The notes: generated by a model not told the origin, from the letters alone. DNA of 21,749 bases from an uncultured Bacilli bacterium (GCA_905236535.1 CAJOQN010000003.1:1-21749), one strand, 5' to 3'; numbered from the stretch's first letter, positions 3,259-21,749 are shown. Translations and numbers: made by a program.

Positions 3259-3284
3259 AAAAAAGGGAATCATAAAAGATTCCC
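3259..3284 (-). terminator. Rho-independent terminator for the esterase lipoprotein gene.
   Basis: gggaatc-ataaaa-gattccc stem (3265-3271 / 3278-3284) followed on the minus strand by U6 (the A-run at 3259-3264). Confidence 0.65.
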
Positions 3285-3308
3285 TGTTTTATTAATAGTG
3301 ACTATTAA

Positions 3309-4868
3309 TTATTTTTTAGATTCAAACCAATCAAAGAGATTGACGGCTTCTCCATCAACGATAACATCTTTATCGGATGGGGCTTTGATTTGTTCTGAAT
3401 TAGCTTGATCTTTGTCGACCATATCTCTAAAAATATAAATCCAAGAGAAGTGACCCATATAGTTGTTACCATTTGGGTTACAATCTGTTCCTCTAACATC
3501 AGTGAAATAAGCGAGGTGAACATCCTCCGCTCCCGCTCTCATAAGTCTTTGATATGTTGGAATAACATAGTTATTTGGTGGAACAGTGGTGTCGTTAGCG
3601 GCATGAATGAACCAAATTGATAAATCTTTTAATTGTTGAATTTGTGTATCACTAATTAAATCATTAGCGTAAGCTTCACATGTTGGATAATAGGCTCTAA
3701 AGAAGTCACCATAATTGATGGCCATTTCCATCGTCATATAACCACCATTGGAGCATCCACCGAGATAAACACGGTTGGCATCAATATCTAAGTTGTGTTC
3801 AATGAAATGATCAATCGTGTCTTTTAAGATTTTACGATAGATGGAATTTCCACCACCACTTTGACCAGAACCGTTATCCATCCACATTGTTGGAGTTTGA
3901 ACTGCCAAGACATAAGCGCCGTGTGGAAAGTGAGATTGAATTTGTTTTTCACCTAAAGCGGTGACATCGTTACCTAATAAGGCGATATCTGGATCAGTTC
4001 CACCTTCACCCATCCCATGTAACCAAATGATAAGAGGGTTCTTTACGCCATCTTCTCTTAAAGCATCAATTTCATAAGCTTTATAGGTAAGGGTTTGATT
4101 ATTGGAAGAATAAGAATGGGCTGGTCCCCAGTCTCTCGTAGAGAGAGTGGTTCTCGCACGTAAAGTATCAAATACTTTACCACTGGCATAATCGCCCATA
4201 GCACTTGAAAGAGTGGCATCGACGGTGATGTTTTGGGTCCAAGAGTTCATATTGTTCATATAGGTGAAGCATCCTTGTCCAGCAGCAACACCCCAACCAC
4301 TGTAGGTAGTTTGGAAGTCTAAACGGATATACTTACTTTCAGTGGCATTGATAACTTGTCCTTCAATATCACAAAGCGATTTTCCAATAATAGTACGATT
4401 GGTTTTGTTAGTTCTAGCTGTAAAGTTTGCGGCTTCAAGTTCACTAGCGGAAATTGGTTCTGTTAAAGAGATCTTTGCTCCGACAATAGCGGGGCCGAAT
4501 TCAAAGCCTTCAACAAGATAGTCAATCGAATCATCAACATCGACGAAAACTTTAAATATTTTGTCAAAGTAGCCTTCTTTGCTAACAGTAACATAAGCAT
4601 TACCTGGGCCTTCAAGGTAGACAGAACCATCATTTTCAACAGAGACAACACTTTCGTCACTAGAGGTATAGGTAACACCTTCTAATGAACATGAGATTTT
4701 TGCAGAATCCTCATCAGCACGATTTAAGATTTGGCGATTAATGGTCGCAGGAATGATTTTAGAGTCTTGCTTTTCACTATTATCACCACTTTTGTTTGAA
4801 TTACAGGCGGTAACGCCCATAATTAAAATAAGGGATGCAAAACCAACAAAAAATTTTGTATTTGCCAT
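3309..4868 (-). CDS. Lipoprotein with a Big_2-like Ig domain and a C-terminal alpha/beta-hydrolase (esterase/depolymerase-type) domain. Start set at ATG 4868 (MANTKFF...); the track start at 4880 is TTG.
   Basis: Signal peptide plus lipobox LILIMGVTAC. A Big_2-like stretch (VTYTSSDESVVSVENDGSVYLEGPGNAYVTVSKEG). An esterase core with the oxyanion region IIWLHGMGEGG and the nucleophile elbow GGCSNGG (G-x-S-x-G). Confidence 0.8.
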   Translation of the reverse strand: MANTKFFVGFASLILIMGVTACNSNKSGDNSEKQDSKIIPATINRQILNRADEDSAKISCSLEGVTYTSSDESVVSVENDGSVYLEGPGNAYVTVSKEGYFDKIFKVFVDVDDSIDYLVEGFEFGPAIVGAKISLTEPISASELEAANFTARTNKTNRTIIGKSLCDIEGQVINATESKYIRLDFQTTYSGWGVAAGQGCFTYMNNMNSWTQNITVDATLSSAMGDYASGKVFDTLRARTTLSTRDWGPAHSYSSNNQTLTYKAYEIDALREDGVKNPLIIWLHGMGEGGTDPDIALLGNDVTALGEKQIQSHFPHGAYVLAVQTPTMWMDNGSGQSGGGNSIYRKILKDTIDHFIEHNLDIDANRVYLGGCSNGGYMTMEMAINYGDFFRAYYPTCEAYANDLISDTQIQQLKDLSIWFIHAANDTTVPPNNYVIPTYQRLMRAGAEDVHLAYFTDVRGTDCNPNGNNYMGHFSWIYIFRDMVDKDQANSEQIKAPSDKDVIVDGEAVNLFDWFESKK

Positions 4869-8100: not shown

Positions 8101-8172
8101 GAAAGAAGAAAGAGAATAACCCGCAACAATTTCTTTATCCCAAATGGATTCGAAAATAGGTAAATTAAACAT
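5170..8172 (-). CDS. Glycoside hydrolase family 3 (beta-glucosidase/beta-xylosidase type), membrane-anchored by two N-terminal TM helices. The domain order is permuted: alpha/beta sandwich domain, then Fn3-like domain, then linker, then the (beta/alpha)8 catalytic barrel.
   Basis: GH3 domain-2 motifs come first (IVLLKNKNNALPL, INVFG, PGLTGTTAVAQVLNGKINPSGHLVDTWPRS, FGYGLSYTTF). An Fn3-like segment follows (VEVKNTGNVAGKDVVEIYF). The barrel motifs sit at the C-terminus (NTHRNPCGGRNFEYYSEDP, KHFLLNEQEANR, GFHGVVITDY with the nucleophile Asp). TM helices FAWWIDLIIIGIAVLLIGTMYFLMAWAF and WFIPVVSSVLVITMLATPILY flank a Lys-rich loop. A strong SD (GGGAGA) lies 7 nt before ATG 8172. Confidence 0.9.
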   Translation of the reverse strand: MFNLPIFESIWDKEIVAGYSLSSFAWWIDLIIIGIAVLLIGTMYFLMAWAFGRFKFTAEDKEAFANYRKSDRKAKKEQAKAAKGPLKSVITWHRMKPWFIPVVSSVLVITMLATPILYTTWDILMTTISGSKTKTYDTEEAMEAAALADENVVTIEGEGIVLLKNKNNALPLDVSTEEGKKINVFGSAAFGLLYGNGGSGSFQTDGRYSAFPRVAKKLEVALGEEGFEINQYLFNMIKNYYATNRNSNYSVADRDYDIQCGVNTYNYSEVVPTKEPVNFEAPIAAYTKTYSELGDKSLLDYSTDYSDTALYVITRRGSEDGDMNVSGGGTLGATLMLTDTEKQIIQMLEDNFEKVIILFNVPTVCEAEFVDDDGIDAAVFIGHPGLTGTTAVAQVLNGKINPSGHLVDTWPRSMTSAPSYQNFGNATTLTHTGASTGRFVEYIENIYVGYRYYVTRGMVDDDFDYDDEVRWSFGYGLSYTTFDKSIVEFKVDKTNQKVEVGVEVKNTGNVAGKDVVEIYFHAPYYEDYGIEKSWFTLIGFTKTNVLQPNESKNYKIEFTFREMASWSTADGFYLLEHGDYEVSLREDVWNIAQTSTNRQNARTFNIAQDIEFTRSYQTGAEYQNLFQDVEWGANNAEKIKYLSRSDFAGTWQNTNQINRTATSDKFPGGTSNQQGGQNFNFSDNQIEGDTPTMGANNGLTLRDFKDADWDDEGWDDLLDQLSRQELFNIVDQGSFRTTSISSIGKAQASDYDGPSSAYHSGTGHPSEVIVACSWNVNVATLMGESIGREGASRGLTGWYAPGINTHRNPCGGRNFEYYSEDPLIAGQMAGHTAQGSMKYGVYTYAKHFLLNEQEANRAGVFTWCSEQALREIYARGFEIYVDLGGIGIMSSFNCVGSWWAGASKALLTDLLRTEWGFHGVVITDYVSSPYMAVNIGIRAGNDLWLNKNPSCDAQHAYNQTQHDTLILLRRAAKNILYACAHSNNVWDEADYQAVGLTKPA

Positions 8173-8449: not shown

Positions 8450-9931
8450 CTAATCTTTTTGTTGATCTTTGGCGTTTGCCACCACTTTGGTGCCGAAGTA
8501 TCCTAAAAGTAAGGATTTAAGATCGATACCTAAAGTTTTGTTTAAGCCTTCGAAGATTTGATCGCCGTGTTGTTGAATCTCACTGACGAGTTTGGCTTCG
8601 TTGCCATCTCCATACATGGTAATACCATCGATTTGGGCAAGAGCGGCAGCGATTGGCTCAGCATAGGCTCTTACTGTCTCTGGTAAAACATTGGATTCAA
8701 GGATGAGCTTTAAGGTGGCAGCGTCATTATAGGATTTCATGGCGTCGGCTTTAGCTTTGATGGCGTCGGCTTCCGCTTGACCTTTGGCTTCAATACCTTT
8801 AGCTTCTGCTAAAGCAGCTTCTTTATTGGCATCCGCTTCAATTCTCACGGCCGTGGCAGCTTGTTCACGAGCATTCTTTTCCGCTTCAGCGGCCACTTTT
8901 TTAATTTCGGCTTTTCTTTGAGCTTCCACTAAATCGGCTTCAGCAGCTTTTTGACGGGTGAAGAGATTGGCTTCAGCAGCTTTTTCAGCCGCATATTTTT
9001 CAGCATCCGCTTTCTTATTGATGGTCGCGGCAAGTTTTTTCTCAGCGAGTTCCACTTCTTTATTTCCGAGTTCAACTTCTCTTTCTCTTTTAGAGATTTC
9101 CGCGTTTGTGGTTGCGACATTGATCTCTTCTTGTCTTTTTTGAGCTTGGATTTGATAGGCGGCATCTGCATCAGCCTTCGCGGTGTCGGTCTTAATCTTG
9201 AGTTCTGCTTCTTTTAAAGCATATTCCGTATTCTTTTGAACGATGACAGTCTTGGAATTGACTTCTGCTTCATTCGCATCTTGAGCGGCTTTTGCTCTAG
9301 CGATAGAGACATCTCTTTCAGCGTTTGCCTTAGCAATCGCTGCTTCTTTAGAGATTTGAGAAATGTTATCAATACCTAAGTTTTCAATAACATGATTGCC
9401 ATCGGAGAAGTTTTGAATGTTGAAGTTGACAAGTTCAATGCCGAGTTTTTCCATGTCTGGCACGACATTTTCCATAACCTTGGAGGCCACACCTTTACGG
9501 TCTTGGACTAATTGGCGGATTCCAACCGTGCCAACGATTTCTCTCATATTGCCTTCAAGAACTTGTTTGACTTGTTCAATTAAGTCCTCTTGATTCATTC
9601 CAAGAGTGGCTTCAAACGCTCTTTCAAGAAGGGCTGGATCGCTAGAGATCTTTAAGTTGGCGACCCCATCAACATTGATGTTAATGAATTCGTTGGTGGG
9701 AATTGATTCACGAGTCTTGATATCGACTTGGAATACCTTAAGGGATAATTTGTCTTTTCTTTGTAAGAAGGGAAGTTTCCAACCAGCTTGCCCTCTTAAG
9801 ATTTTTCTTTTGCCTAAACCAGAGATCATAATGGCTTCATCTGGTCCCGCTTTGGTGTATGAGCAGAGCACTAAGACAATTAAAAGCACTACTACTACAA
9901 TAACCCCGAATAAGATCCAAAATAATAACAT
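8450..9931 (-). CDS. Flotillin-family SPFH protein, FloT/YuaG-like: N-terminal membrane anchor, SPFH domain, long Ala/Glu/Lys-rich coiled coil.
   Basis: TM segment MLLFWILFGVIVVVVLLIVLVL. Flotillin/band-7 motifs follow. An extended EA-repeat coiled coil is present (AEKAAEANLFTRQKAAEADLVEAQRKAEIKKVAAEAEKNAREQAA...). A strong SD (GGGAGGA) lies 7 nt before the ATG. Confidence 0.9.
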   Translation of the reverse strand: MLLFWILFGVIVVVVLLIVLVLCSYTKAGPDEAIMISGLGKRKILRGQAGWKLPFLQRKDKLSLKVFQVDIKTRESIPTNEFININVDGVANLKISSDPALLERAFEATLGMNQEDLIEQVKQVLEGNMREIVGTVGIRQLVQDRKGVASKVMENVVPDMEKLGIELVNFNIQNFSDGNHVIENLGIDNISQISKEAAIAKANAERDVSIARAKAAQDANEAEVNSKTVIVQKNTEYALKEAELKIKTDTAKADADAAYQIQAQKRQEEINVATTNAEISKREREVELGNKEVELAEKKLAATINKKADAEKYAAEKAAEANLFTRQKAAEADLVEAQRKAEIKKVAAEAEKNAREQAATAVRIEADANKEAALAEAKGIEAKGQAEADAIKAKADAMKSYNDAATLKLILESNVLPETVRAYAEPIAAALAQIDGITMYGDGNEAKLVSEIQQHGDQIFEGLNKTLGIDLKSLLLGYFGTKVVANAKDQQKD

Positions 9932-10505: not shown

Positions 10506-11432
10506 TTATTTAATATAATCAATAATTTTCTTCATTATTTTTTCGTCTTGTAAAGTCAATTTATGGAGTGAAACATCTTTAAAATAATTAATCTTATCCT
10601 CATTTGTGTTGATGATTTTCTTCTTTAATAAAACATTATATTTATCAAAGACTTCATTCATATAATCCAAGGCTGTTTTTTGATAGTTTGGATTGTGCCC
10701 TTTATTGTTCTCAATAATAAATTCAAAATTTGAATTATCAAGCTCTTTCACTTCTTTGGTCGCGTTTTCATAAGGGACTACTGGATCATCAATAGAATGA
10801 ATGAAAAGAATGTTCTTTGAGGTCTCTTTTAAAAACGATAACAAATTAATATCAAAATAAGATGGCTCCGCTTTCATTTCGTAATTCAAAATGTGAGAAG
10901 TAATAAAATGGGATTTGGTGAAATGAAAGACCAAAGATTTAATCGAGATAAAGGGGGCAATAACCACTCCTTTTATAATTTCATCTCTCAAAGAGAGGAT
11001 ATTTAAAGCAGTATAGGCTCCTAAAGAATGGCCGATAACCACGATTTCAGTGTCCATCTTTAAATAATCTAATAAATCGTTTACATCTTTCGTCGGTTCA
11101 TTTAAAGATCTAAGATTATCACCTTTAGATTCTCCGCATCCTTGATAATCTAAAGTCAAAACTTTAAAACCCTCTTTTGCGAGGTATTCAATCTCTCGTA
11201 AATAAGCGGTGTGCCCGGGTCCTATTCCGTGTAAGAATAAAACAATCTTATCCGTCTGATAATTATCGTAATAATAATAAAAATAACGAATCTCGACATT
11301 ATTTGAATTAATAAAAGAGGAGGCTTCTTGATGCAATCCCTCAAAATCTAAATAACAAAAATAGGGCACTCCGACGTCCTTATTATATCGGCACACAAAT
11401 TTTTTAAGATATTCGTTAGCAATAATTCCCAT
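10506..11432 (-). CDS. Alpha/beta-fold hydrolase (serine hydrolase).
   Basis: HGIGPGHTAY oxyanion region and GHSLGAY nucleophile elbow (G-x-S-x-G). The start overlaps the stop of the upstream ThuA-like gene (TAATG). Confidence 0.85.
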   Translation of the reverse strand: MGIIANEYLKKFVCRYNKDVGVPYFCYLDFEGLHQEASSFINSNNVEIRYFYYYYDNYQTDKIVLFLHGIGPGHTAYLREIEYLAKEGFKVLTLDYQGCGESKGDNLRSLNEPTKDVNDLLDYLKMDTEIVVIGHSLGAYTALNILSLRDEIIKGVVIAPFISIKSLVFHFTKSHFITSHILNYEMKAEPSYFDINLLSFLKETSKNILFIHSIDDPVVPYENATKEVKELDNSNFEFIIENNKGHNPNYQKTALDYMNEVFDKYNVLLKKKIINTNEDKINYFKDVSLHKLTLQDEKIMKKIIDYIK

Positions 11433-12355
11433 TATTCAAAGAATCCAAACATCGTATCAAGCAATAAAGCGTTTTGAATTTCACTACCAAAGGTCCACGA
11501 CAAAGTTGTATCTGTCTCATAATTCATCAAATTATGACCCATATTCATATACATCATATTGTAATTAAGATTAGTCCAGACTACTGGATAATAACCGCTA
11601 TACCAAATCTCTTCTTGTTTTGGTCCCGTTCCCAAAGGAAAACTTGAAGGATCAATCGAGCAAAGAATTTGAATATCAGGGTTTTCTCTTAAATCGTGTT
11701 CCCAGCGATACCATTCACATGGAGTGGATTCAAAAAGGTCGGGAATATTTCTGGTACCTGGATAATCGTGAGTCTCCACTTTTAAGAACGCGGAAGTTGG
11801 AGCCCAGGTATTGCTCACATATTGACCTGACCCTAAAAAGTCTTCGTGATACCAGTCCCAATCTTGATTATAAGAACTAGGAGTTAAGGCAAAAGCACTA
11901 AAATGGAATCCAACCCAACATCCACCATTATCCATATATTCTTCAAAAGCTTCTCTTTGAGAAGGAGCTTCTGGCCTCGTGTCATAAAATAAAACAATAT
12001 CAACATCGCTTAAATAATCAGCGTTCATATTGTCCCAATTATTGGTAGATTCAAAGATAAAATTATGGGTTTGAGCGGTCTCGCTAAACCAAGTATTAGC
12101 TTCTTTACAAAAGCTGACATGGGCTTGATCATTGATTCCAGTATAAAAAGCGACAGCTTTAAAACAAGGACCACAAACATCACATGGGTAACCAATATGC
12201 TCTTCAATCTCGACTTCATGGCATCCACGGATTATGCAATGCCTCCAGTGTTGGTTGGCGTCGCTTTCCCATTTACTCCAAACGTGAGTGTGTCCTTTTT
12301 GACATGCGCTTAAAGCGATAACACTGATTAAAAATAAAGCACTTTTGATTTTCAT
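11432..12355 (-). CDS. ThuA-like (class-I glutamine-amidotransferase-fold, trehalose-utilisation family) lipoprotein with a Cys/His-rich N-terminal segment.
   Basis: Lipobox LFLISVIALSAC. ThuA core DVDIVLFYDTRPEAPSQREAFEEYMDNGGCWVGFHFSA. The N-terminus HTHVWSKWESDANQHWRHCIIRGCHEVEIEEHIGYPCDVCGPC carries possible metal ligands. Confidence 0.8.
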   Translation of the reverse strand: MKIKSALFLISVIALSACQKGHTHVWSKWESDANQHWRHCIIRGCHEVEIEEHIGYPCDVCGPCFKAVAFYTGINDQAHVSFCKEANTWFSETAQTHNFIFESTNNWDNMNADYLSDVDIVLFYDTRPEAPSQREAFEEYMDNGGCWVGFHFSAFALTPSSYNQDWDWYHEDFLGSGQYVSNTWAPTSAFLKVETHDYPGTRNIPDLFESTPCEWYRWEHDLRENPDIQILCSIDPSSFPLGTGPKQEEIWYSGYYPVVWTNLNYNMMYMNMGHNLMNYETDTTLSWTFGSEIQNALLLDTMFGFFE

Positions 12356-12564: not shown

Positions 12565-13851
12565 TTATTTAGAAGATGATCTTTTCGTTTTGGTGACTTT
12601 GCTATATAAGAAGATTTCTTTACGTTGAGTGATATTTAAAGAATTCTCTCTTATATAATTCTTTGCCCCATATTGGAATTTAACGACTTTGTTTTGTTTT
12701 CTCATGATTATATGAGAGGGGATAGCCGCGGCTAGACCGGCGAAGACACCAATAACAAGTCCAGATACCCAACCTTGAGAAATACCAAAGGCAATACCAA
12801 AGGCAACGCCACCAGCAAAAAGGAAGAAAAGCAAGAAGAACAAAATAGATTTAGGAATAGAGATTGGTAGATCACCTGCAACCTTTCCGCTTTGTCCATT
12901 AACCGCAAATTGATAATTCTTTTCTTTCCATTTGGTGTTTAAAACCCACACGGGATATAAAGCATAACTAGATTGGGTATTTGAGAATTGAATATTTGAA
13001 TCTTGGATAGAGACATTGCTATATCCATGAACATCATTTCTAAAAGCTTCGATGGTCCCATCACGGAATCTTTGAGTCGCACGATTAAAGGTCACATCTT
13101 TATCAACATCATATCGATCCGCGGCAATACCCGCGAGATAGGCAACATTGAATTCTTCCGCTTGATCGAAATCAAAAGGTTCAATGGATTCCATTAATTT
13201 GTCATCCATCTTTTTAGAACCATCGACTGGAACATGATCAAAAGCGATTTGACCACCACGGATGATGGAATAATATTTGGTCTCTTTATAATCGTATTGA
13301 GAGTCGGACCAACGTTCGACAATTTCACCTTTAAATCTGACCTTGCCATCGACATCCGCATCAAAAATCCAAAATGGAACATATAAGGATTTGATCTCCT
13401 CAATGGTGTTCTCTTTTGAAAAACTTCCTGGCAATAATGGCTTTTTCTTGAAGAATTTCTTTAAATTCTCCATCACTTTTTCTTTATCGTTCTTAAATGG
13501 AATGACATAGTTTGGTCTTAAATCACCAGAGAGTTGTTTGGAGACAAGGAGGTTATTTCCGCAGTATGGACATGTTGTTGAAGTTGTCGTTTCTTCAACG
13601 ATAATTTCACCACCACAGGAATCACAGGAATAAATCTTCATTCCTTTCATTTCTTCGTTGGTGTATTCTTCCACTCTTGATTGATCCCAAGAAGTATCTT
13701 CTTGTTTATCGGAAGCTAAATCATCAGTGTATTCTTGCAAATCTTTTGTCGTGAAATGAGAGTCGCAATAAGGACAAATAACTTCTTGACTCTTATTGTC
13801 AAACTCTAAAGTTCCACCACAGCAGGGGCACTTAAGTTGTAAATTAGGCAT
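12565..13851 (-). CDS. Zinc-ribbon (TFIIB-type-like) membrane protein: three N-terminal CxxC...CxxC ribbons, a central soluble domain, then two C-terminal TM helices and a basic tail. Proposed YdjG+YdjH-like partner of the upstream SPFH protein.
   Basis: CPCCG..CPYC, CDSCG..CPYCG. TM helices ILFFLLFFLFAGGVAFGIAFGI and LVIGVFAGLAAAIPSHIIM. SD GAGG 10 nt before the ATG. 17-nt gap from the SPFH gene. Confidence 0.85.
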   Translation of the reverse strand: MPNLQLKCPCCGGTLEFDNKSQEVICPYCDSHFTTKDLQEYTDDLASDKQEDTSWDQSRVEEYTNEEMKGMKIYSCDSCGGEIIVEETTTSTTCPYCGNNLLVSKQLSGDLRPNYVIPFKNDKEKVMENLKKFFKKKPLLPGSFSKENTIEEIKSLYVPFWIFDADVDGKVRFKGEIVERWSDSQYDYKETKYYSIIRGGQIAFDHVPVDGSKKMDDKLMESIEPFDFDQAEEFNVAYLAGIAADRYDVDKDVTFNRATQRFRDGTIEAFRNDVHGYSNVSIQDSNIQFSNTQSSYALYPVWVLNTKWKEKNYQFAVNGQSGKVAGDLPISIPKSILFFLLFFLFAGGVAFGIAFGISQGWVSGLVIGVFAGLAAAIPSHIIMRKQNKVVKFQYGAKNYIRENSLNITQRKEIFLYSKVTKTKRSSSK

Positions 13852-13868: not shown

Positions 13869-15257
13869 TTATTTCTTGTCTAAATCGTTAATTGGATCGC
13901 CGCATTCTGGGCAGAATTTAGGAACATTATTTTGATCCGCTGGTTCCCACCCACATTTATCGCATTTAATCTTGCTGCCACTTGGTCTTGGTTTGCCACA
14001 GTTCGCACAGAATTTACCAGTGTTCACTGTCCCACATCCACAAGTCCAGCCATCGGCTTCTGGCTTTTTGGTTCCACATTCTGGACAGAACTTACCAGAG
14101 GCTTGGGCCCCACATTTTGGACAAGTCCATGTTCCTTGTGGTTCTGGTTTTTTCGCTCCACATTCAGGACAGAATTTGCCACTAGCTTGAGCGCCACACT
14201 TTGGACAAGTCCAAGTGTTAGCTGCTTGTTGTTGAGCTTTTTGTTCTTCACCCATTTGGTAGAAGCTTTGAGCGTTCATGCCACCAGCTTGGGCTGCCAT
14301 ATTCATTCCATAAAATCCCATGACCGCACCATTTGGATTAGAAGCGGCGTTCTTCATGGCTTCAGCTTGGGCTTCAACTAAAGTTGCACCGGCCATTGAA
14401 GCGTTTCTAGCATAAACATTCTTTCTTTGTAATTCTTTGATTAAATCTTCATCTTCTTTTGGAAGAGTGACACTACCTAAAGCGATAGAGATGACTTCGA
14501 TACCACGTAATGAACCCCATTGTTCATCAAGAGCGTTATTCATCGCTTTTTCTAAATCGGTGAGGTGAGTCATGATTTGGTTTGGTCTTAATTGAAGTTC
14601 ACTAAGATGACCAAATGCTGGTTGTAAGGCGTGGACGAATTCAGTTTTTAATTGAGAATCAATTTGTCCTCTGACATAACTATCAGTGACATTACCACAC
14701 ACGTTTTGATAGAAGAGAATAGGATTGGTAATCTTATAAGAATAGACACCATTACAACGAACAGAGACATCAATGTCGATTCCAACATTGTTATCCACCA
14801 CTCTAAATGGAACTGGATTTTGAGTGCCAAATTTGTTGTCCATGATTTCTTTGGTGTTGAAGTAATAAACTCTTTGATCTGAACCGGTGTCACCGCCATA
14901 GGCGAAACGTCTACCCATGGTTTTAAATAAACCAACAACTCTTTCACCAAAGGTTCCTGCAAAGATGGAAGATTCGGTTTTAGAATCAAAGGTATATGCT
15001 CCTGGTTCGGCTGCAAATTCTACAACTTTACCTTGATCGACAATGACCATACATTGACCGTCGCCGACAACGATTGTAGAACCGTTAGAAATGATGTTAT
15101 CACTTCCTTTAGTGTTAGATGATCTTTTCGCGTTGACTCTTTTTTGTCCTTTTTTGACTAAAACATCAACTGGTAAAGCTTCACAGTAGAAATATTCTTT
15201 CCATTGATCTGCTAAAGTTGAACTAACTGAGCCCGCAAAAGCTTTTATTAAACCCAT
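13869..15257 (-). CDS. SPFH/Band-7-like (PF13421-type, YdjI-like) protein with an Ala/Gln-rich coiled coil and four C-terminal zinc-ribbon repeats.
   Basis: N-terminus MGLIKAFAGSVSSTLADQWKEYF. A beta-rich core, then a coiled coil (AQAEAMKNAAS...EEQKAQQQAA). The tail reads TWTCPKCGAQASGKFCPECG twice, then CGCG..CANCG, then CDKCG..CPECG. SD AGGAGG 8 nt before the ATG. The family assignment is from memory of the motif and is not verified. Confidence 0.8.
   Translation of the reverse strand: MGLIKAFAGSVSSTLADQWKEYFYCEALPVDVLVKKGQKRVNAKRSSNTKGSDNIISNGSTIVVGDGQCMVIVDQGKVVEFAAEPGAYTFDSKTESSIFAGTFGERVVGLFKTMGRRFAYGGDTGSDQRVYYFNTKEIMDNKFGTQNPVPFRVVDNNVGIDIDVSVRCNGVYSYKITNPILFYQNVCGNVTDSYVRGQIDSQLKTEFVHALQPAFGHLSELQLRPNQIMTHLTDLEKAMNNALDEQWGSLRGIEVISIALGSVTLPKEDEDLIKELQRKNVYARNASMAGATLVEAQAEAMKNAASNPNGAVMGFYGMNMAAQAGGMNAQSFYQMGEEQKAQQQAANTWTCPKCGAQASGKFCPECGAKKPEPQGTWTCPKCGAQASGKFCPECGTKKPEADGWTCGCGTVNTGKFCANCGKPRPSGSKIKCDKCGWEPADQNNVPKFCPECGDPINDLDKK
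14040..14207 (-). repeat. Two tandem 84-bp coding repeats (28-aa zinc-ribbon unit TWTCPKCGAQASGKFCPECG-xKKPExxG). They are diverged at synonymous positions.
   Basis: The DNA units ggttccacattctggacagaacttaccagaggcttgggccccacattttggacaagtcca and cgctccacattcaggacagaatttgccactagcttgagcgccacactttggacaagtcca are roughly three-quarters identical but encode identical peptides. Confidence 0.6.
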
Positions 15258-15286
15258 ATTAAAGGCCTCCTAAATGTAACAATCTT

Positions 15287-15320
15287 ATTATAATCTTTCT
15301 TATATAAAATATAAAAATAT
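15287..15320 (-). promoter_or_regulatory. Candidate promoter for the SPFH/zinc-ribbon operon (TATAAT at 15287-15292 on the minus strand, about 22 nt upstream of the start codon and including the SD).
   Basis: Minus strand reads ...tttatataagaaagatTATAATaagattgttacatttAGGAGGcctttaatATG. The -35 is poor. Confidence 0.3.
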
Positions 15321-15395
15321 TTCGCTTTTATTTGTTAAGTTATCTATTTTTTACTTTGGCAAAATTTTCTTTATATTAATAGAGATCGAATTTTA

Positions 15396-15421
15396 ATAAA
15401 AAGACCAAGATTTTGCTTGGT
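15396..15421 (-). terminator. Rho-independent terminator after the Hpt gene (bidirectional).
   Basis: accaag-attttg-cttggt stem (15404-15421) directly after the stop codon, followed by cuuuuua on the minus strand. Confidence 0.6.
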
Positions 15422-15422
15422 T

Positions 15423-15770
15423 TTATTGATTTTTTTTATAACTATCTATCACAAGTTGATAAGCGTCTTTTAATTGTTGTATCTCCTTAGAGATATCAAC
15501 ATCATCACTTTTTCTTGTGAGCTCAGTGATGTTAGAAGAGATTTCATATAAAGGGGTTAAGGCCAAATTTCCAGTGACACCTTTAAAGGAATGAGCGGCA
15601 GCGAATAAATTACGAAAATCTTTTTGTTCATAACTATTAATAATTTGCTCAAAAACATTATTGGACATAAATTTAGTGAGCATTCTTTCAATTAAAGAAT
15701 CATTCATCATGATTGAAAGAGCGTTTTGATAACTACCTTGAATATCATTATAGAATTGTTTAATGTTCAT
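15423..15770 (-). CDS. Stand-alone Hpt (histidine phosphotransfer) protein.
   Basis: 115-aa all-helical protein with the phospho-accepting motif AAHSFKGVTGNLAL (H-x-x-K-G-x-x-x-x-G). The start overlaps the stop of the upstream REC-EAL gene by 11 nt. Confidence 0.85.
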   Translation of the reverse strand: MNIKQFYNDIQGSYQNALSIMMNDSLIERMLTKFMSNNVFEQIINSYEQKDFRNLFAAAHSFKGVTGNLALTPLYEISSNITELTRKSDDVDISKEIQQLKDAYQLVIDSYKKNQ

Positions 15771-17469
15771 CGCCTTTTAACTCCTCTTTAATCAAAGCTT
15801 CGAAATCATTAAGAGGCAATGGTCTCGATAAATAATATCCTTGGACGATATCACACCCATTCTTTTTCAAGAAATCACATTGTTCTTTTGTTTCCACACC
15901 TTCGGCAATAGTAATAGCGTCAAGCATCTTGGATAAATTAATAATCATTTTAAGGATATGTTTGACTTTTGGGTTCTTATCCATTGTTTTGATGAATTGC
16001 ATATCAATCTTTAAAATATCAAATGGTAAATCCGCGAGAGCGCCAAAAGAGGAATAACCACTACCGAAGTCATCGATTTCCACTTTAAAGCCATTGTTTC
16101 TAATCTTCTCGATAACTGGAATAACGACTTGAGCGTCTTCCACAAAAGCGGATTCCGTGATTTCAATGTAATAATTCTCTCTCGGAATATTATTCTCATC
16201 AACAAAACCAATGATTTCTTCGACAAGATTTGGGCGATAAATATCAACGCGTGATAAATTAACGCTTAACGGAACATCAAGACCATATTTATCTTTCCAC
16301 TCTCTCATATATTTCGCGGCTTTTTTAAGAATATATTCATCAAGTTCACCAATTAAACCATTCTCTTCAAATAAGGAGATGAATTCACCAGGGTTCACAA
16401 AACCAAATTTAGGACTAATCCATCTAATTAAAACTTCCGCGCTGGAGAATGTTGGTTTATCACCTTGAATATTGTATTTAGGTTGGAAGAATAATTTGAA
16501 TTGACCTTCTTCTAAAGCTTGAGGGAAAGCGTTAATAAGTTCTTCACTATGTAGTGTTTTGGCTTGCTTTTCCTCGTTATAAAAACCGATGTTTTCAACA
16601 TAGTCATTAGTTAATGAATCTGCAGTGGTCTTTGCTCTTCCAATGACGATTTCTTTATCAATTTGCGGATCAACATTTTGATAAACACCAACTCTAAAAG
16701 TAATATTTACTTCACTGGAGACTTTTTGAATGGCCTCATTTAATTTAAGCGGAAGAATATCATAATTATCATGATGCTCGCAGTAGATTAAGAAGGTGCT
16801 TCCTCCATACTTACCTAAAAGACCATTACAATTATTAATGCAAACACTTAATTGTTCTGCGAAGGCTAAAAGGATTTGATCCCCAAATGCTCTTCCATAT
16901 AATTCGTTAATGAGTCTAAATCTATTAATAGAGATAGAAATCATATCCTTAGGAATATCAGGGTAAGCAACATCAAATTGTTTAGCGTATTTTTTGAAAA
17001 ATTCAACGGTGTAAAGACCGGTGAGTCTTTCTGTTTCCACTTCTTTTAAGATTGATCTATCTTCATATAATTCAATCATTCTTTTGATTCTAGCAACAAT
17101 TATATCGGGGTTTTCATAGGGTTTTTTGATAAAATCGTTAACTCCAAGATGGAAACATTCCTCTTCGATATTCTTATCACTAGTGCAAACAATAAAAGGA
17201 ATTCTTTTAAGTTCAGGATTATTTTGTCTAACCTTTAAAAGCTCTCGACCATCCATTGGCATAAAGACATCTAAAAGCACTAAATCAATTTTGTGTTCCG
17301 CTTTTAAAAGGAGATCTAAAGCTTCTTGGCCATCGCTAGCTCTTAAAATATTAAAATCGTCCATTAATATCGTCGACATGATTTCGAGATTAATCTCTTC
17401 GTCATCAACGATGAGAACGGTTCGTTTGACAGAAAAGTTTCCGCGATTATAATTTACTGATTTCCTCAT
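15760..17469 (-). CDS. Response-regulator c-di-GMP phosphodiesterase: REC domain, degenerate GGDEF (motif KYGGSTF), and an EAL domain with catalytic motifs intact. Start set at ATG 17469; the ORF-track start at 17493 is TTG.
   Basis: REC domain VLIVDDEE...DLVLLDVFMPMDG...K. GGDEF fold GLYTVEFF...GRAFGDQIL...GKYGGSTFLIY. EAL domain QPKY..EVLIRW, NYYIEITES, EIDDFGSGYSS, LKIDMQFI, IAEGVETKEQ, QGYY. The TTG at 17491-17493 is the TG extension of an extended -10 (TTGTATAAT). Confidence 0.85.
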   Translation of the reverse strand: MRKSVNYNRGNFSVKRTVLIVDDEEINLEIMSTILMDDFNILRASDGQEALDLLLKAEHKIDLVLLDVFMPMDGRELLKVRQNNPELKRIPFIVCTSDKNIEEECFHLGVNDFIKKPYENPDIIVARIKRMIELYEDRSILKEVETERLTGLYTVEFFKKYAKQFDVAYPDIPKDMISISINRFRLINELYGRAFGDQILLAFAEQLSVCINNCNGLLGKYGGSTFLIYCEHHDNYDILPLKLNEAIQKVSSEVNITFRVGVYQNVDPQIDKEIVIGRAKTTADSLTNDYVENIGFYNEEKQAKTLHSEELINAFPQALEEGQFKLFFQPKYNIQGDKPTFSSAEVLIRWISPKFGFVNPGEFISLFEENGLIGELDEYILKKAAKYMREWKDKYGLDVPLSVNLSRVDIYRPNLVEEIIGFVDENNIPRENYYIEITESAFVEDAQVVIPVIEKIRNNGFKVEIDDFGSGYSSFGALADLPFDILKIDMQFIKTMDKNPKVKHILKMIINLSKMLDAITIAEGVETKEQCDFLKKNGCDIVQGYYLSRPLPLNDFEALIKEELKGDEH

Positions 17470-17475
17470 AATGTC

Positions 17476-17510
17476 GTCTTTTATATTATACAAATTCCTT
17501 TATTAATTAA
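17476..17510 (-). promoter_or_regulatory. Extended -10 promoter (TG-N-TATAAT; plus-strand 17485-17493) driving the REC-EAL/Hpt operon with a leader of about 8-10 nt and no SD.
   Basis: Minus strand reads ctctttttaattaataaaggaattTGTATAATataaaagacgacattATGagg. The upstream terminator U-tract overlaps the -35 position. Confidence 0.4.
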
Positions 17511-17529
17511 AAAGAGTTCGTTTGAACTC
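17509..17529 (-). terminator. Rho-independent terminator after the SBP gene.
   Basis: gagttc-gttt-gaactc stem (17514-17529) followed by uuuuuaauu on the minus strand. Confidence 0.55.
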
Positions 17530-17587
17530 CTTTTATGATTGTTTGTTGTTAACGATGTAATTAACTGAAATATTTTATTTATATTAA

Positions 17588-18865
17588 TTATAAGGTTCCG
17601 AAACCCTCTATAGCTTGATCAATAGAAAGTTCACCTCGTCCAACTTTAAAAGCAGCGTTTGAAATTTGGGTGGTAAGTTTTTCACTAATGCCAATCATCT
17701 CAGGTGAGAAAGTACGTTCTTCTGGGATATTTGCAAATGGAGCGTAGAATGGATCAAATGTTATCTCTTTCGTTGGAGAGACTAAACGTTTATTACAGGC
17801 CATGATATTAAGTTCAAGGGTGGTTAACAAGAATCTCATGAATTCATTGGTCATCTCTAAGTTATCGCAATCCTTATTGACCGAGAATTCGATAGCAGGA
17901 CTATCAATAAAATATCCACCATTATTTGTTAAAGGAATTGGGATATAAGAATATTTAAATGGATGTTTGGTAAAAGCTTCAGATCTCTCTTCGCGTTTGC
18001 TGGTCCCGGAAGCACCATCACTACGACAAATCATCATTGGGACATCACCCTCAAAGAATCTTAAGATAACCGCATTATAATTGTCTTGAATATCATCACA
18101 TTTATCGAGATTAATAGCCCCTTCTTTGATGAGTCTATCAACAATGGTTAATCCTCCTCTCATAAATTCTCCAGCATCACTATCTAAGGCATTAGCTTTA
18201 GCAAGAGCTTCTGGATTATTAGCGAGTTCTACCACACACATTGGATAGGCAATCGTGTTCATCAAGCAATTCATAGAACCTATACTATATCCCATCATTG
18301 GGCTCTCATAGCCTTTTTCAATAAGAGTCTGACAGGAATCTAATAATTCGTTCCAAGTGTTAGGAATTTGAACTTTGGCTTCTTTGTAGAGGTTGTTATT
18401 GATTAAGGCCCCATATGTTCTAGATAAAACAGGAACCATATAAGTTTTGCCTTGTTCATCTTTCTTAATTAAACCTTCACGGATATTATTTAAACCGAAT
18501 CCCAACTCAGGATCTGAAAGATCTTCCATATGAGCGACGGCAGAATTATATTTTTCATCTTCCAACATCGAGGATGAAGAAAAGAAAATATTTGGCTTAT
18601 CGTTGCCATCAAGAATATCCCCTAATTTATTGAAATAGTCATCAGGTTTAGTGTAACTAAGACGAACTTTTGGATAATAGGCATTGAATCTATCAAATTC
18701 CGCTTCTAGGGATTCAAAGTTATCATAACTTCCGACAATTTTAATGTCACAAGCTGTATTTTTATCCAAAGAAGGCTTAAATTCAGTGTTTTTTAAGCGG
18801 TTCCCGCAAGAAACAAGACTTGCTGAGGCAAAAATTGTTAATACAGCGCAAAGTATTTTTTTCAT
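17588..18865 (-). CDS. Family-1 (carbohydrate/MalE-type) extracellular solute-binding lipoprotein. No ABC permease or ATPase genes are adjacent, and it is translationally coupled to the upstream histidine kinase.
   Basis: Lipobox ASASLVSCGN. SBP_bac_1-type N-terminal pattern (IKIVGSYDNFESLEAEFDRFNAYYPKVRLSYTKPDDYFNKLGDIL...IFFSSSSMLEDEKY). ATG overlaps the HK stop (TAATG), with GGAGG 10 nt upstream inside the HK tail. Confidence 0.9.
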   Translation of the reverse strand: MKKILCAVLTIFASASLVSCGNRLKNTEFKPSLDKNTACDIKIVGSYDNFESLEAEFDRFNAYYPKVRLSYTKPDDYFNKLGDILDGNDKPNIFFSSSSMLEDEKYNSAVAHMEDLSDPELGFGLNNIREGLIKKDEQGKTYMVPVLSRTYGALINNNLYKEAKVQIPNTWNELLDSCQTLIEKGYESPMMGYSIGSMNCLMNTIAYPMCVVELANNPEALAKANALDSDAGEFMRGGLTIVDRLIKEGAINLDKCDDIQDNYNAVILRFFEGDVPMMICRSDGASGTSKREERSEAFTKHPFKYSYIPIPLTNNGGYFIDSPAIEFSVNKDCDNLEMTNEFMRFLLTTLELNIMACNKRLVSPTKEITFDPFYAPFANIPEERTFSPEMIGISEKLTTQISNAAFKVGRGELSIDQAIEGFGTL

Positions 18866-21405
18866 TATTTTGATTCCTCCTTCATTCTACGAATCTCTTT
18901 AATGACAAGTTTGATATCGATTGGTTTTGCGATGTGACCATTCATTCCAGCATTTAAGCATTCAGTAACGTTTTCAGCAAAGGCGTCCGCAGTCATTGCA
19001 ATGATTGGAATTGATGAGGCCCATGGATCCTTTAATTTACGAATTGCTCTAGTGGCGTCTAAACCATTCATCTCAGGCATTTGAATATCCATAAAGATAA
19101 GAGTGTATTTTCCTGGTTTGGCCTCTTTCATCTTTTCAAGAGCAATGCGTCCATTCTCCGCACGTTCAGTGGTAACACCATACATCGAAAGCAAGGTCGA
19201 AATGATTTCCCAGTTAACTTCGTTATCTTCAGCGACAAGAATATTTAAACCTTCTAAATCAGAATAATCATTCTCAGGTTCTCTTGATGTAACATCTGTG
19301 CCTAATATCTCACTTATCTTATCATAAAGCGTGGAACGGAAGAGAGGCTTGCTGAGGAATCCATTAACCCCTGCTTCTTTTGCTTGTTCTTCGACATCGG
19401 ACCATGAATAAGCCGAAATTAATAAGATTGGAACAGAATTAGAAACTTCCGCACGGATACGACGAATGGTCTCAATTCCATCCATATCTGGCATCTTTAA
19501 ATCGAGAATAACAATATCATAATTCTTTCCTGTCTTTTCTCTATGTTTAATCATTCCAAGAGCTTCAAAGCCACCTGTGGCTTGCTCGACATTTAAACCA
19601 AGAGACGCTAAAGTGTCACTTCCAGTTTCTAACAATACTTCATCATCATCGACAATTAAGACATCGAGAGGTTGAAGCTTCATCTCTCCTCTTTGATGTT
19701 CGGCGATTGGAATATCTAAGATGACGGTGAAGGTTGTGCCTTTACCTGGTTCACTTTGACAATCAATCGTCCCTTTCATTAGGTCCACCATTTGTTTCGT
19801 AATTGCAAGGCCTAAACCTGTGCCTTGAATACTATTCACACGACTATCGGTTTGACGAGAGAATGGTTGATAAAGATGTTCCATGAATTCTGGAGACATT
19901 CCAATACCATTATCGGAAACGATATATGTCAATTTGACACATCCTTCTTTTTCACTCTCTTCTTCCTTCATATCCACAGCAACACGACCACTTGGTTGTG
20001 TGTATTTAATCGCATTGCTTAAAATGTTGATAAAGATTTGATTCAATCGAAGTTGATCAGCGTATAAATATTCTTTTTCCATGCGGTTGATATGGAAGCT
20101 GAAATCGATATTTTTCTCTTTAATCATTGGTTGTGATAAATTCATAAGATTCTCGACAGTCTCAACAATGGAAAAGGTCTGGGGCACAAGATTAAGTTTT
20201 CCGCTTTCAACTTTAGAAATGTCTAAAATATCATTGATAAGTGTTAATAGATGGTTACTGGCAAGAGAAATTTTGCGGAGATTTTCACCCACGGCTTTTT
20301 GATCATTAATATTCTTTTCTGAAATGGTGGTCAAACCAATAATCGCATTCATTGGTGTACGGATATCATGAGACATGGTGGAAAGGAAGTTTGTCTTTGC
20401 TTGGTTTGCAGATTCCGCTTCTTTTGCACTAATTTGTAATCTCTTATTGAAATAACCCATTATTGCTAAGTCGAAAACAAATAAGATGAGAAGACCTGAA
20501 GAAACAATACCAATCAAAAGCCAGTTTTCAGCGTTAACATTTAAATATTTCGACGGCATCAAACTTAAAAGCGTCCAGTCACCGGTGGCATTAAAAGGAG
20601 TGTAAGAAAGAATACACCTTTCGCGTTTTGAGTTACGCATAAAGAAAAATCCTGTATCAGTGTCAGAAGTAATCTTGTTGAAGAATTCATCCGCTTTCGA
20701 AGGATCTATTTTATTATATGATTTATAGAATTCAAAAAAGTTGTTATTCTTATAAGAATAACCATTGATGATATAATCCCCATTTTTATCGATGATAGCG
20801 AGTTCGGCATTTTGAAATTCTTCTTGTGGAAAAACCCATTTTTCCAACAATTCTGAAACCGGGAGAACACGGAGCAAAACCGCTTCTTTAGACACTCCTG
20901 ATTCATGGAGAGTAATAAGATTGCAAAAGGCAATGCATCGCTGACTATTAACTGGATTGGTGTAAGAACGAGTGATATTAATCGAGGTTCCAATGAGATG
21001 AATCCAACTCAAATCTTTCATAAAATCATAATCATCATTAGTGTAATCAACGGTGAAATCGGTGGATTCCTCGTTTTTCGCTCTCGTTGTTAAACCAATT
21101 AATGTATCAGTGTAAACGACATGCGCGGATGCGTTTGGCAAAACGTGAGAAATACGGATAAAAGAAATAGCTTCGTCAATTGTTAATTCTTCACTATTAA
21201 TATAGTGAGCCCAAACGTCACAAATACGCTGTTCTCCTTCGAAATAGTTTTCGGTGACGTGCTCCATTGCAATGGTGGTGTTTCCATAATGCTTAATTTG
21301 TGTTTGGCTTAAATCTTGTGCTTCCAATGTTGAATAGACCACAACAAAAGAAAGTATTATTAACATAATGAAGATATTAACGAATACAACCCAAATACGT
21401 TTCAT
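18865..21405 (-). CDS. Hybrid sensor histidine kinase: TM1, roughly 270-aa extracellular (dCache-like) sensor, TM2, HisKA, HATPase_c, then two REC domains.
   Basis: TM helices MKRIWVVFVNIFIMLIILSFVVVY and WLLIGIVSSGLLILFVFDLAIMGYF. H-box LSTMSHDIRTPMNAIIGL. N/G boxes ILSNAIKYT, DNGIGMS, GTGLGLAITKQMVDLMKG. REC1 LIVDDDEV...ILDLKMPDMDG. REC2 ILVAEDNEV...IFMDIQMPEMNG...K. Confidence 0.9.
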   Translation of the reverse strand: MKRIWVVFVNIFIMLIILSFVVVYSTLEAQDLSQTQIKHYGNTTIAMEHVTENYFEGEQRICDVWAHYINSEELTIDEAISFIRISHVLPNASAHVVYTDTLIGLTTRAKNEESTDFTVDYTNDDYDFMKDLSWIHLIGTSINITRSYTNPVNSQRCIAFCNLITLHESGVSKEAVLLRVLPVSELLEKWVFPQEEFQNAELAIIDKNGDYIINGYSYKNNNFFEFYKSYNKIDPSKADEFFNKITSDTDTGFFFMRNSKRERCILSYTPFNATGDWTLLSLMPSKYLNVNAENWLLIGIVSSGLLILFVFDLAIMGYFNKRLQISAKEAESANQAKTNFLSTMSHDIRTPMNAIIGLTTISEKNINDQKAVGENLRKISLASNHLLTLINDILDISKVESGKLNLVPQTFSIVETVENLMNLSQPMIKEKNIDFSFHINRMEKEYLYADQLRLNQIFINILSNAIKYTQPSGRVAVDMKEEESEKEGCVKLTYIVSDNGIGMSPEFMEHLYQPFSRQTDSRVNSIQGTGLGLAITKQMVDLMKGTIDCQSEPGKGTTFTVILDIPIAEHQRGEMKLQPLDVLIVDDDEVLLETGSDTLASLGLNVEQATGGFEALGMIKHREKTGKNYDIVILDLKMPDMDGIETIRRIRAEVSNSVPILLISAYSWSDVEEQAKEAGVNGFLSKPLFRSTLYDKISEILGTDVTSREPENDYSDLEGLNILVAEDNEVNWEIISTLLSMYGVTTERAENGRIALEKMKEAKPGKYTLIFMDIQMPEMNGLDATRAIRKLKDPWASSIPIIAMTADAFAENVTECLNAGMNGHIAKPIDIKLVIKEIRRMKEESK

Positions 21406-21623
21406 TTGCTTTTAACCTAAATTCTAGAAAATTGTAATTGATATTATGTTATCACAAATATTTTTACATTTGGAAACAAATATAAAAAGGTGCCTATATC
21501 GTTGATGACATTTTCAATATAACCAGGTCGTCTCTTAATATAAAAAACCTCCATTTCATTGACTTATCCAATAAAGCGGATTCACTTCAGGAATGGCCAA
21601 TTTCTGGGGGATTTTACAAAAAA

Positions 21624-21699
21624 TGGTGGATCTGACGGGGATCGAACCCGCTACCTCGTCGTTGCGAACGACGCGCTCTCCCAGATGAGCTACAGACCC
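21624..21699 (-). tRNA. tRNA-Ala (anticodon CGC), 76 nt with encoded CCA.
   Basis: RC = GGGTCTG-TA-GCTC-ATCTGGGA-GAGC-G-CGTCG-TTCGCAA-CGACG-AGGTA-GCGGG-TTCGATC-CCCGT-CAGATCC-A-CCA. The G3:U70 Ala identity pair is present. D-loop AUCUGGGA is like E. coli tRNA-Ala. A perfect 5-bp anticodon stem places CGC at positions 34-36. Confidence 0.85.
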
Positions 21700-21711
21700 A
21701 CAGCGATATTT

Positions 21712-21739
21712 ATTATATATAATTATCATTCTTTTTCAA
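21712..21739 (-). promoter_or_regulatory. Candidate sigma-A promoter for tRNA-Ala (TTGAAA -35 at 21734-21739, TATAAT -10 at 21712-21717, 16-nt spacer, on the minus strand).
   Basis: RC of the window end reads TTGAAAaagaatgataattataTATAATaaatatcgctgt, followed by the tRNA 5' end. Confidence 0.4.
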
Positions 21740-21749
21740 TTTAATAAAA

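Follow-up and report, generated by a model that had tools for sequence, protein, structure and literature searches.

A putative phosphorelay from an orphan sugar-type solute-binding lipoprotein and a dCache hybrid kinase to a REC-EAL phosphodiesterase

Introduction

What is the role of a solute-binding protein (SBP) whose gene is coupled to that of a sensor kinase and has no transporter genes beside it, and which output would it control? The question is raised by a stretch of 21,749 nucleotides from an uncultured Bacilli bacterium (GCA_905236535.1 CAJOQN010000003.1:1-21749), here called the window, whose source is a 73-kb metagenomic scaffold. Four open reading frames (ORFs), all on the minus strand, encode a hybrid histidine kinase (HK), an SBP lipoprotein, a response regulator (RR) with a receiver (REC), a degenerate GGDEF and an EAL domain, and a free histidine-containing phosphotransfer (Hpt) protein. 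A sequence-only reading of the window had described these genes as a phosphorelay in which the SBP is a co-sensor of the kinase, and the ORFs and Pfam matches confirm the gene set, its domains and its coordinates.

We consider it probable that the orphan sugar-type SBP senses together with the dCache hybrid kinase, and that the signal would pass through the free Hpt protein to the REC-EAL protein, a predicted cyclic di-GMP (c-di-GMP) phosphodiesterase. The domains, the conserved residues, the gene linkage and a variant kinase with a fused Hpt domain support this wiring, in which the phosphotransfer steps are predicted.

The solute-binding lipoprotein

The SBP matches the Pfam family SBP_bac_1 (E 1e-13), and the lipobox cysteine, Cys20, is invariant among its homologues. 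Its sequence matches in the PDB are weak. The AlphaFold2 model, with a predicted local distance difference test score (pLDDT) of 81, is most similar in Foldseek to RafE, MsmE and chitin-oligosaccharide SBPs, at 13-18% identity, and this fold alone suggests an oligosaccharide or other carbohydrate ligand. By its lipobox and its modelled Venus-flytrap fold, the SBP is an exported binding protein of the kind that SBP-dependent kinases use.

The HK stop codon and the SBP start codon share a TAATG, with a GGAGG 11 nt upstream, so that the ribosome-binding site stands in the HK tail, as the sequence-only reading had it. An overlap between kinase stop and SBP start is found in 62 of 64 junctions of homologous loci (ATGA in 59, TAATG in 3). 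The SBP gene is thus coupled to the gene of a sensor kinase rather than to permease or ATPase genes, which is the arrangement of three-component kinase systems. It is not encoded with the two permease genes expected of a member of a CUT1 ATP-binding cassette (ABC) importer, and neither Pfam nor the annotation places an ABC permease or ATPase gene in the window, again in line with the earlier claim. No permease or ATPase gene lies beside the SBP in the annotated contexts (the source contig, the first three homologous loci and the distant relatives), and a search with motif regular expressions detected no CUT1 permease loops or ABC ATPase signatures adjoining the SBP in 85 loci.

Even beside the more distant SBP relatives in L086 (41% identity) and L090 (31%), a homologous dCache kinase is encoded. 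Among 1.84 billion proteins the family has 506 representatives at E <= 1e-3, so that it is small and set apart from the bulk of CUT1 SBPs. Through the whole depth of the family the SBP appears to be tied to the dCache kinase and not to a transporter, which supports a function in sensing.

The cysteines C39, C178, C256, C280 and C333 of the SBP are also invariant. A 32%-identical relative (L088 7001-8269) has neither a dCache kinase nor a permease gene next to it; its neighbours are split transketolase genes and a Cthe_2159-family gene.

The hybrid kinase and its ectodomain

The kinase has transmembrane (TM) helices at residues ~5-27 and ~295-318, either side of its ectodomain, followed by HisKA (336-402), HATPase_c (450-565) and two Response_reg stretches (best 582-697). 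Pfam finds no Hpt domain in it, so that the two C-terminal receivers and the missing Hpt domain are as had been read from the sequence. It carries the residues expected of a multistep phosphorelay kinase, namely the H-box histidine, the N, G1 and G2 boxes and the aspartate of a fused receiver. Three NCBIfam models of hybrid kinases match below their cut-offs, being LuxQ (NF041947; score 332 against 1200, E 8e-99), TorS (TIGR02956; 344 against 676) and BarA (334 against 890), and these matches span the kinase core and receiver only.

The ectodomain, about 270 residues within the first 320, has no match in Pfam. Its fold is taken from a model, because the sequence search of the PDB gave no match at E <= 10. 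The AlphaFold2 model (pLDDT 85), built on 40 homologues, begins with a TM helix that continues as a long stalk helix; two alpha/beta modules and another TM helix follow. Compared with the PDB by Foldseek, it has dCache ligand-binding domains as its top matches (Mlp24, PctA, Tlp3, TlpA and the kinase ectodomain 3lic), with E values of ~1e-9 and a probability of 1.0, in agreement with the dCache-like domain that had been proposed. Homologues of the ectodomain are 50-67% identical. Precomputed matches to Pfam dCache_1 exist in only two kinase homologues, and the match is sub-threshold in L072; a rumen-wide survey of dCache receptors used Pfam dCache_1 matches (PMC9540692).

As modelled, a dCache domain between two TM helices belongs to the fold class of LuxQ and HptS, and the ectodomain is of a kind able to dock an SBP. 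At least 90% conservation in both kinase types described below is found for 72 ectodomain positions, densest at residues 141-160 and 201-220. This conserved surface could be the SBP docking site or the kinase's own ligand pocket. Cys62 and Cys264 of the dCache domain are invariant in both kinase types.

The REC-EAL regulator and the Hpt protein

The most likely start of the RR is the ATG at 17469 (569 residues), which is also the choice of gene callers, over the TTG at 17493 (577 residues). Pfam positions are numbered on the 577-residue ORF, the ATG form being 8 residues shorter, and give REC at 26-132, GGDEF at 156-267 (45 bits) and EAL at 321-558 (E 5e-64, 216 bits). The acidic pair, aspartate, threonine and lysine of a canonical receiver are kept in 28 RR homologues. 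The same number of family members conserve the EAL motifs FQPKY, EVLIRW, SVNLS, EITES, DDFGSGYSS, LKIDM, EGVET and VQGYY, where loop 6 has a serine in the place of the threonine or alanine of the published motif DDFG(T/A)GYSS. The intact catalytic motifs mark the EAL domain as a putative phosphodiesterase, whose activity might be raised or lowered through the receiver. The RR lacks the GG(D/E)EF motif of active diguanylate cyclases: its signature is degenerate, as the sequence-only reading had noticed, and is so in 28 of 28 family members (GGSTF here; SADTF, EADNF, NGDNF and others elsewhere). The sequence-only reading suggested that this domain could be a GTP-sensing module, which would place it with the PdeA/CC3396 type. 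The nearest relatives by sequence in the PDB are the GGDEF-EAL proteins MorA, MucR and DosP.

The RR stop codon overlaps the start of the 115-residue Hpt gene by 11 nt, with a GAGGAG upstream, so that the proposed overlap stands. The Hpt histidine, in an HxxKG motif, is invariant in 26 homologues.

Occurrence and locus types

The system is widespread and not a rarity. When one genome per species was scanned, 532 species genomes had an SBP relative, and more than 3,600 relatives are present in a large protein collection, the best 120 being all ~60% identical. Detailed locus maps cover the 80 closest genomes; they were drawn with phmmer seeds and checked by Pfam, and the counts below are read from them. 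Names from the ruminant gut (RUG, RGIG with host and organ, ruminal_MAG, red deer) are borne by 57 of these 80 genomes, and another habitat is named in none. At the level of phylum or class they are labelled Clostridia, Bacilli (Erysipelotrichaceae, Acholeplasmatales), Spirochaetota and Chloroflexota, and the finer labels are Lachnospiraceae, Oscillospiraceae, Ruminococcaceae, Christensenellaceae, Erysipelotrichaceae, Acholeplasmatales, Sphaerochaetaceae and Flexilinea. Taxon labels on short metagenome-assembled contigs are possibly wrong, although the Spirochaetales labels recur on independent proteins. Three of the 80 are cultured isolates, Butyrivibrio sp. MB2005 and Lachnospiraceae bacteria RM5 and P6B14, all with the variant form described below as type B; the three presumably belong to a rumen culture collection.

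The first three homologous contexts (L003-L005) contain all four genes in unchanged order among wholly different neighbours, and the gap between the SBP and RR genes is 17-50 nt. More generally, 63 of the 80 loci are of type A, in which a kinase with dCache, core and two receivers (a single one in L015) is followed by the SBP. A REC/degenerate-GGDEF/EAL gene adjoins the HK-SBP pair in 25 of them, accompanied in most by a free Hpt gene, and some of these REC-EAL proteins have an extra, well-scoring C-terminal GGDEF domain. The REC-EAL and Hpt genes are usually downstream of the pair; they are upstream in L018, L039, L040, L043, L046, L051, L062 and L070, and in L066 the Hpt gene is upstream and the regulator downstream on the opposite strand. 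Eleven more type A loci have genes for membrane GGDEF or HD-GYP-type proteins in their flanks, several of them directly after the SBP. The remaining 27 have no c-di-GMP gene in the flank, and in 10 of these the sequence downstream of the SBP is shorter than 3 kb.

Type B comprises 14 loci of Lachnospiraceae type, where the SBP comes first and is followed by a kinase ~35% identical to that of the window. This kinase consists of dCache, core, REC and a fused Hpt domain, the latter standing where the window's kinase has its second receiver. A REC-HD-GYP gene comes next in 10 of the 14, with both the HD and the GYP motifs intact.

Some further signalling genes lie in or near these loci. A 256-residue protein, made up of an unassigned 130-residue N-terminal part and a receiver, is encoded between the kinase and REC-HD-GYP genes in L072 (12199-12969), with equivalents in the type B loci L020, L035, L045, L053, L080 and L083. 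Just upstream of the type B set of L080, one ORF (3-3599) combines a kinase core, two receivers, HD-GYP and Hpt. Further hybrid kinases are found near the cassette in L039, L062 and L070.

Conservation and gene history

The median identity between pairs of SBPs is 71%, and SBPs of type A and type B are as alike as those within one type. In type A kinases the median is 78% for the core and 69% for the sensor domain. Identity to the window's own proteins is 74-86% for the HK core, 56-63% for the SBP, ~40% for the RR and 27-53% for the Hpt protein; among all SBPs compared, that of the window diverges most, its median identity to the remaining ones being 58%. Across loci, the identity of the SBP correlates with that of the sensor domain at r = 0.72 and with that of the kinase core at r = 0.66, the sensor domain and the core correlating at r = 0.56, which gives weak support to a co-evolution of SBP and sensor domain.

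The GC content of the cassette ranges from 26 to 56% and tracks that of its flanks (r = 0.94). Recent horizontal transfer is therefore not favoured as the cause of the high identity across phyla; the genes seem to be long-resident and under strong purifying selection.

Proposed relay and alternative explanations

In the relay that we propose, the lipid-anchored SBP, with the fold of an oligosaccharide-binding protein, would capture a ligand that is probably carbohydrate-like. It would serve no ABC importer and would dock on the dCache domain of the kinase, in the manner of LuxP with LuxQ, HptA with HptS and CuaD with CuaS. Docking would shift the balance of autophosphorylation and phosphatase activity at His346, from where the phosphoryl group would be handed to the internal receiver residues Asp635 and/or Asp773 and on to His60 of the free Hpt protein. 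Transfer from His60 to Asp67 of the REC/degenerate-GGDEF/EAL protein would alter its phosphodiesterase activity, and the changed c-di-GMP pool would probably act on attachment, motility or matrix behaviour. An Hpt domain is absent from the window's kinase and fused in the type B kinase, and by the domain-fusion argument the kinase and the Hpt protein would therefore work together. The retention of a REC-phosphodiesterase gene with the pair, in varied gene orders and taxa, also supports the wiring, as does the predicted c-di-GMP phosphodiesterase output of both types, built from the unrelated EAL and HD-GYP domains.

Several observations weigh against this wiring. The fetched flanks of 38 of the 63 type A loci contain no REC-EAL or Hpt gene, so that the kinase need not always use this partner. 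In the window itself, the hairpin and the -10 element described below part the two gene pairs, and the RR and Hpt proteins are far less conserved than the HK core and the SBP. The Erysipelotrichaceae locus L010 (5470-10844), compared with positions 13869-21405 of the window, has an SPFH gene 91% identical to the window's and at the same place an HK-SBP pair (60-77% identical; SBP 60%) that runs directly into it, without RR and Hpt genes. This layout points to a replacement of the cassette or to separate gain and loss of its halves, and it is the main argument for two independent units, in which the HK-SBP pair would signal to a regulator encoded elsewhere, the REC-EAL and Hpt proteins would be fed by other hybrid kinases, such as those encoded nearby in three loci, and the adjacency would be incidental or reflect a clustering of signalling genes. 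We regard such a separation as unlikely, since the 25 co-localised loci belong to different taxa and have shuffled orders and differing flanks, the SBP and RR genes almost abut in L003-L005, and the variant with the fused Hpt domain is followed by a REC-HD-GYP gene. Moreover, a kinase that lacks an Hpt domain needs one, and the sole nearby Hpt gene is coupled to the REC-EAL gene. Another point against co-sensing by the SBP is the segment R146-F160 in the distal module of the ectodomain, which is strongly conserved in both kinase types and could be the kinase's own ligand pocket instead of a docking site for the SBP. The dCache domain itself might then be the ligand receptor, with the SBP as an accessory or second input, that is, a modulator or a co-receptor for another ligand. 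The top structural matches are all ligand-bound receptors, dCache domains usually bind small ligands directly, the regions with the densest conservation correspond to the canonical distal pocket, and in Ruminiclostridium cellulolyticum CuaSR alone and CuaDSR both perceive cellobiose (PMC10384115). We nevertheless find this explanation rather unlikely, in that the dCache-like ectodomains of LuxQ and HptS work via their SBPs (PMC8050422), the SBP is the most constant element, being 71% identical between loci whose kinases are 35% identical, and the amino-acid/AI-2 motif of the PctA type (R126, W128, Y144, D146, D173; PMC9540692) does not seem, by eye, to be reproduced.

The ligand class of the SBP is also uncertain, because the identity to any solved sugar-binding protein is only 13-18%, and the permease test across the 85 loci used motif regular expressions and not a profile search. 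The SBP might be an ordinary transport protein of an ABC importer encoded elsewhere, perhaps serving in two roles, and the linkage of its gene to that of the kinase might reflect co-regulation only. It has the CUT1 oligosaccharide-binding fold, its orphan relative in L088 adjoins no dCache kinase, and some SBPs both transport and signal (PMC8050422). This is very unlikely in view of the absence of a permease/ATPase pair beside the SBP in the 85 loci and in the annotated contexts, the nearly universal 4-nt overlap with the kinase gene and the isolation of this small family from the bulk of CUT1 SBPs. At the output end, the REC/GGDEF-like/EAL protein could, instead of being an enzyme, act as a receptor for c-di-GMP or as a scaffold, in the way of FimX or LapD. 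Both are among its sequence relatives and its GGDEF motif is degenerate in all members, but unlike FimX and LapD the family conserves the catalytic and loop 6 motifs of EAL. The nearest relatives are active phosphodiesterases (MorA, MucR, DosP, RocR) and the variant system uses an HD-GYP domain with intact motifs, which makes a scaffold function highly improbable.

If the SBP and the dCache kinase do sense together, they might, as a tentative and somewhat speculative extension, form the receptor for one cue shared in the ruminant gut, either a plant-fibre oligosaccharide or an inter-species signal. The high identity of the SBP across genomes of 26-56% GC and its occurrence in 532 species are compatible with such a cue, and so is its apparent wiring to c-di-GMP degradation at least twice, once with free Hpt and REC-EAL and once with fused Hpt and REC-HD-GYP. 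In that case the system might act across the whole community, switching cells between attachment to feed particles and release from them.

Locus layout and neighbouring genes

The features of the locus are collected in Table 1.

Table 1. Predicted features of the four-gene locus, in window coordinates
Feature	Coordinates	Strand	Evidence
Hybrid sensor HK, 846 aa: TM1, dCache ectodomain, TM2, HisKA, HATPase_c, REC1, REC2	18865..21405	-	Pfam, motifs
dCache-fold sensor domain (modelled), kinase residues ~30-290	20536..21318	-	AlphaFold2 model, Foldseek
HisKA dimerisation/phospho-acceptor domain; H-box SHDIRTPMN, His346 (20368-20370)	20200..20400	-	Pfam, motif
HATPase_c with N (N464), G1 (DNGIGM) and G2 (GTGLGL) boxes	19711..20058	-	Pfam, motif
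Kinase receiver 1: canonical DD, Asp635, Ser664, Lys686	19315..19662	-	Pfam, motif
Kinase receiver 2: canonical E/D, Asp773, Thr805, Lys827	18883..19245	-	Pfam, motif
SBP lipoprotein, 425 aa; lipobox LVSC, Cys20; CUT1 oligosaccharide-binding-protein fold (modelled)	17588..18865	-	Pfam, AlphaFold2, Foldseek
Core stem-loop GAGTTC-AAAC-GAACTC, SBP-RR intergenic	17514..17529	-	hairpin scan, sequence
TGTATAAT, extended -10-like element, ~16 nt upstream of RR ATG	17485..17492	-	read from sequence
RR, 569 aa: REC, degenerate GGDEF (GGSTF), EAL	15760..17469	-	Pfam, motifs
RR receiver: acidic pair, Asp67, Thr96, Lys116	17098..17418	-	Pfam, motif
Degenerate GGDEF-like domain; GGSTF at 16792-16806	16693..17028	-	Pfam (45 bits, profile positions 5-126 of 161)
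EAL domain, all catalytic motifs	15820..16533	-	Pfam (216 bits), motif alignment
Free Hpt protein, 115 aa; His60 in HSFKG; start overlaps RR stop by 11 nt	15423..15770	-	Pfam E 7e-8
Intrinsic-terminator-like hairpin and T-run, end of unit after Hpt	15404..15421	-	hairpin/terminator scan

Between the SBP and RR genes, a hairpin, whose stem reaches 12 bp with flanking A and U tracts (z = -5.2) and which is terminator-like on both strands, is followed by the TGTATAAT element. The latter was missed by the consensus promoter scan because it has no -35 match. Together they would fit a separate RR-Hpt transcription unit in this window. The promoter that the sequence-only reading had assigned to the RR and Hpt genes seems to be a local feature, given the short SBP-RR gaps in L003-L005. 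Searching the whole window with Rfam for a c-di-GMP riboswitch or leader, including both intergenic regions, gave no family within 15200-21749.

Other claims about the surroundings did not hold. The adjacent GH3, esterase and ThuA genes, which had been taken to indicate a sugar ligand, are real but not conserved neighbours, the flanks differing in every locus, and are therefore uninformative on the ligand. The c-di-GMP circuitry, which had been called sparse, is not so: GGDEF and HD-GYP genes recur beside the HK-SBP pair, and the source contig itself, outside the window and 3.7 kb upstream of the kinase, encodes a candidate diguanylate cyclase (L001 3657-4769), a protein that has several TM segments and whose GGDEF motif is intact (HVGGDEFIAF).

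Elsewhere in the window, the ORFs 10506-11432 and 11432-12355 were considered as ABC permeases and rejected, being an alpha/beta hydrolase and a ThuA protein. The GH3 enzyme (5170-8172, minus strand; 1000 residues) has a permuted architecture of GH3 C-terminal (160-450), Fn3-like (515-584) and GH3 N-terminal (752-945) domains. Three membrane-scaffold-type genes lie in a row on the minus strand, encoding an SPFH/Band_7 protein that ends in repeated zinc ribbons (13869-15257), a zinc-ribbon protein with C-terminal TM segments (12565-13851) and a flotillin-like Band_7 protein (8450-9931). An AT-rich gap between ORFs contains a COG3943 RNA motif (RF02941; 2560-2669, minus strand), whose 95 bits in Rfam exceed the gathering score. 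A tRNA-Ala(CGC) gene (21624-21699, minus strand) lies ~220 nt upstream of the kinase gene, and a partial tRNA (1-76, minus strand) is found at the opposite end of the window.

Significance and comparison with known systems

As a second messenger, c-di-GMP controls whether cells live attached or free, and in the rumen attachment to plant particles plays a central part in the digestion of fibre. For anaerobic Gram-positive gut bacteria we know of very few c-di-GMP inputs whose signal is known. The cassette would be a conserved and widespread, so far uncharacterised, extracellular input to c-di-GMP in such bacteria, and we rate its interest as moderate to good, since it occurs widely, shows strong conservation, seems to be linked to the ruminant gut and lends itself to direct tests. 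The SBP should be soluble once its lipid anchor is removed, which makes it experimentally tractable, and the use of EAL and HD-GYP outputs on one sensor offers a natural experiment in phosphorelay rewiring. In the literature we found no description of this cassette and only analogues; its parts are all known, whereas their combination is not.

The output of HptA/HptS/HptR from Staphylococcus aureus is that of a classical two-component system, the transcription of a hexose-phosphate transporter, and to our knowledge it involves no hybrid kinase, Hpt protein or c-di-GMP enzyme. In this Gram-positive species an SBP is likewise combined with a kinase that has a dCache-like ectodomain, and structures of the HptA/HptS complex have been solved (PMC8050422). 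The CuaD/CuaS/CuaR system of R. cellulolyticum, a Clostridium relative, is not known to include an Hpt protein or a c-di-GMP enzyme, unlike the system described here. CuaS is a classical and not a hybrid kinase, and CuaR is a transcription factor. From its description, the likeness lies in CuaD, a signalling-only SBP that is encoded beside the kinase and binds its ectodomain, the system sensing a plant-derived disaccharide (PMC10384115).

With respect to the output, NspS/MbaA and ScrB/ScrC of Vibrio share with our cassette a non-transport SBP that controls c-di-GMP turnover (PMC8050422), but these SBPs act directly on a membrane GGDEF-EAL enzyme, with no kinase, Hpt or receiver. The Roc system of Pseudomonas has the same order of a Venus-flytrap module, a His-Asp-His-Asp relay and a REC-EAL phosphodiesterase. 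Two-hybrid data indicate that the hybrid kinase RocS4 interacts with the free Hpt protein HptA, and HptA with the REC-EAL protein RocR3 (PMC12051241). RocS1, which acts on the REC-EAL protein RocR, differs from the kinase described here in that both its flytrap module (SBP_bac_3) and its Hpt domain are fused to the kinase, which has a PAS domain and no dCache domain (PMC12051241). RocR has no GGDEF-like domain, and the Roc system branches to transcription factors. With its separate SBP_bac_1 protein, dCache ectodomain, free Hpt protein and GGDEF-like middle domain in the RR, the present system does not belong to Roc.

LuxP/LuxQ-LuxU-LuxO, which responds to autoinducer-2 (AI-2) in Vibrio, has a free SBP encoded beside a hybrid kinase whose tandem ectodomain is dCache-like, and a free Hpt protein that passes phosphate to a receiver protein (PMC8050422), as proposed here, and the kinase cores are alike. 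LuxP, however, belongs to Peripla_BP_4, whereas our SBP is an SBP_bac_1 protein with a CUT1 fold and, unlike LuxP, a lipoprotein, because the hosts are Gram-positive. The kinase described here also carries two receivers, and its predicted output is a c-di-GMP phosphodiesterase in the place of the sigma-54 activator LuxO.

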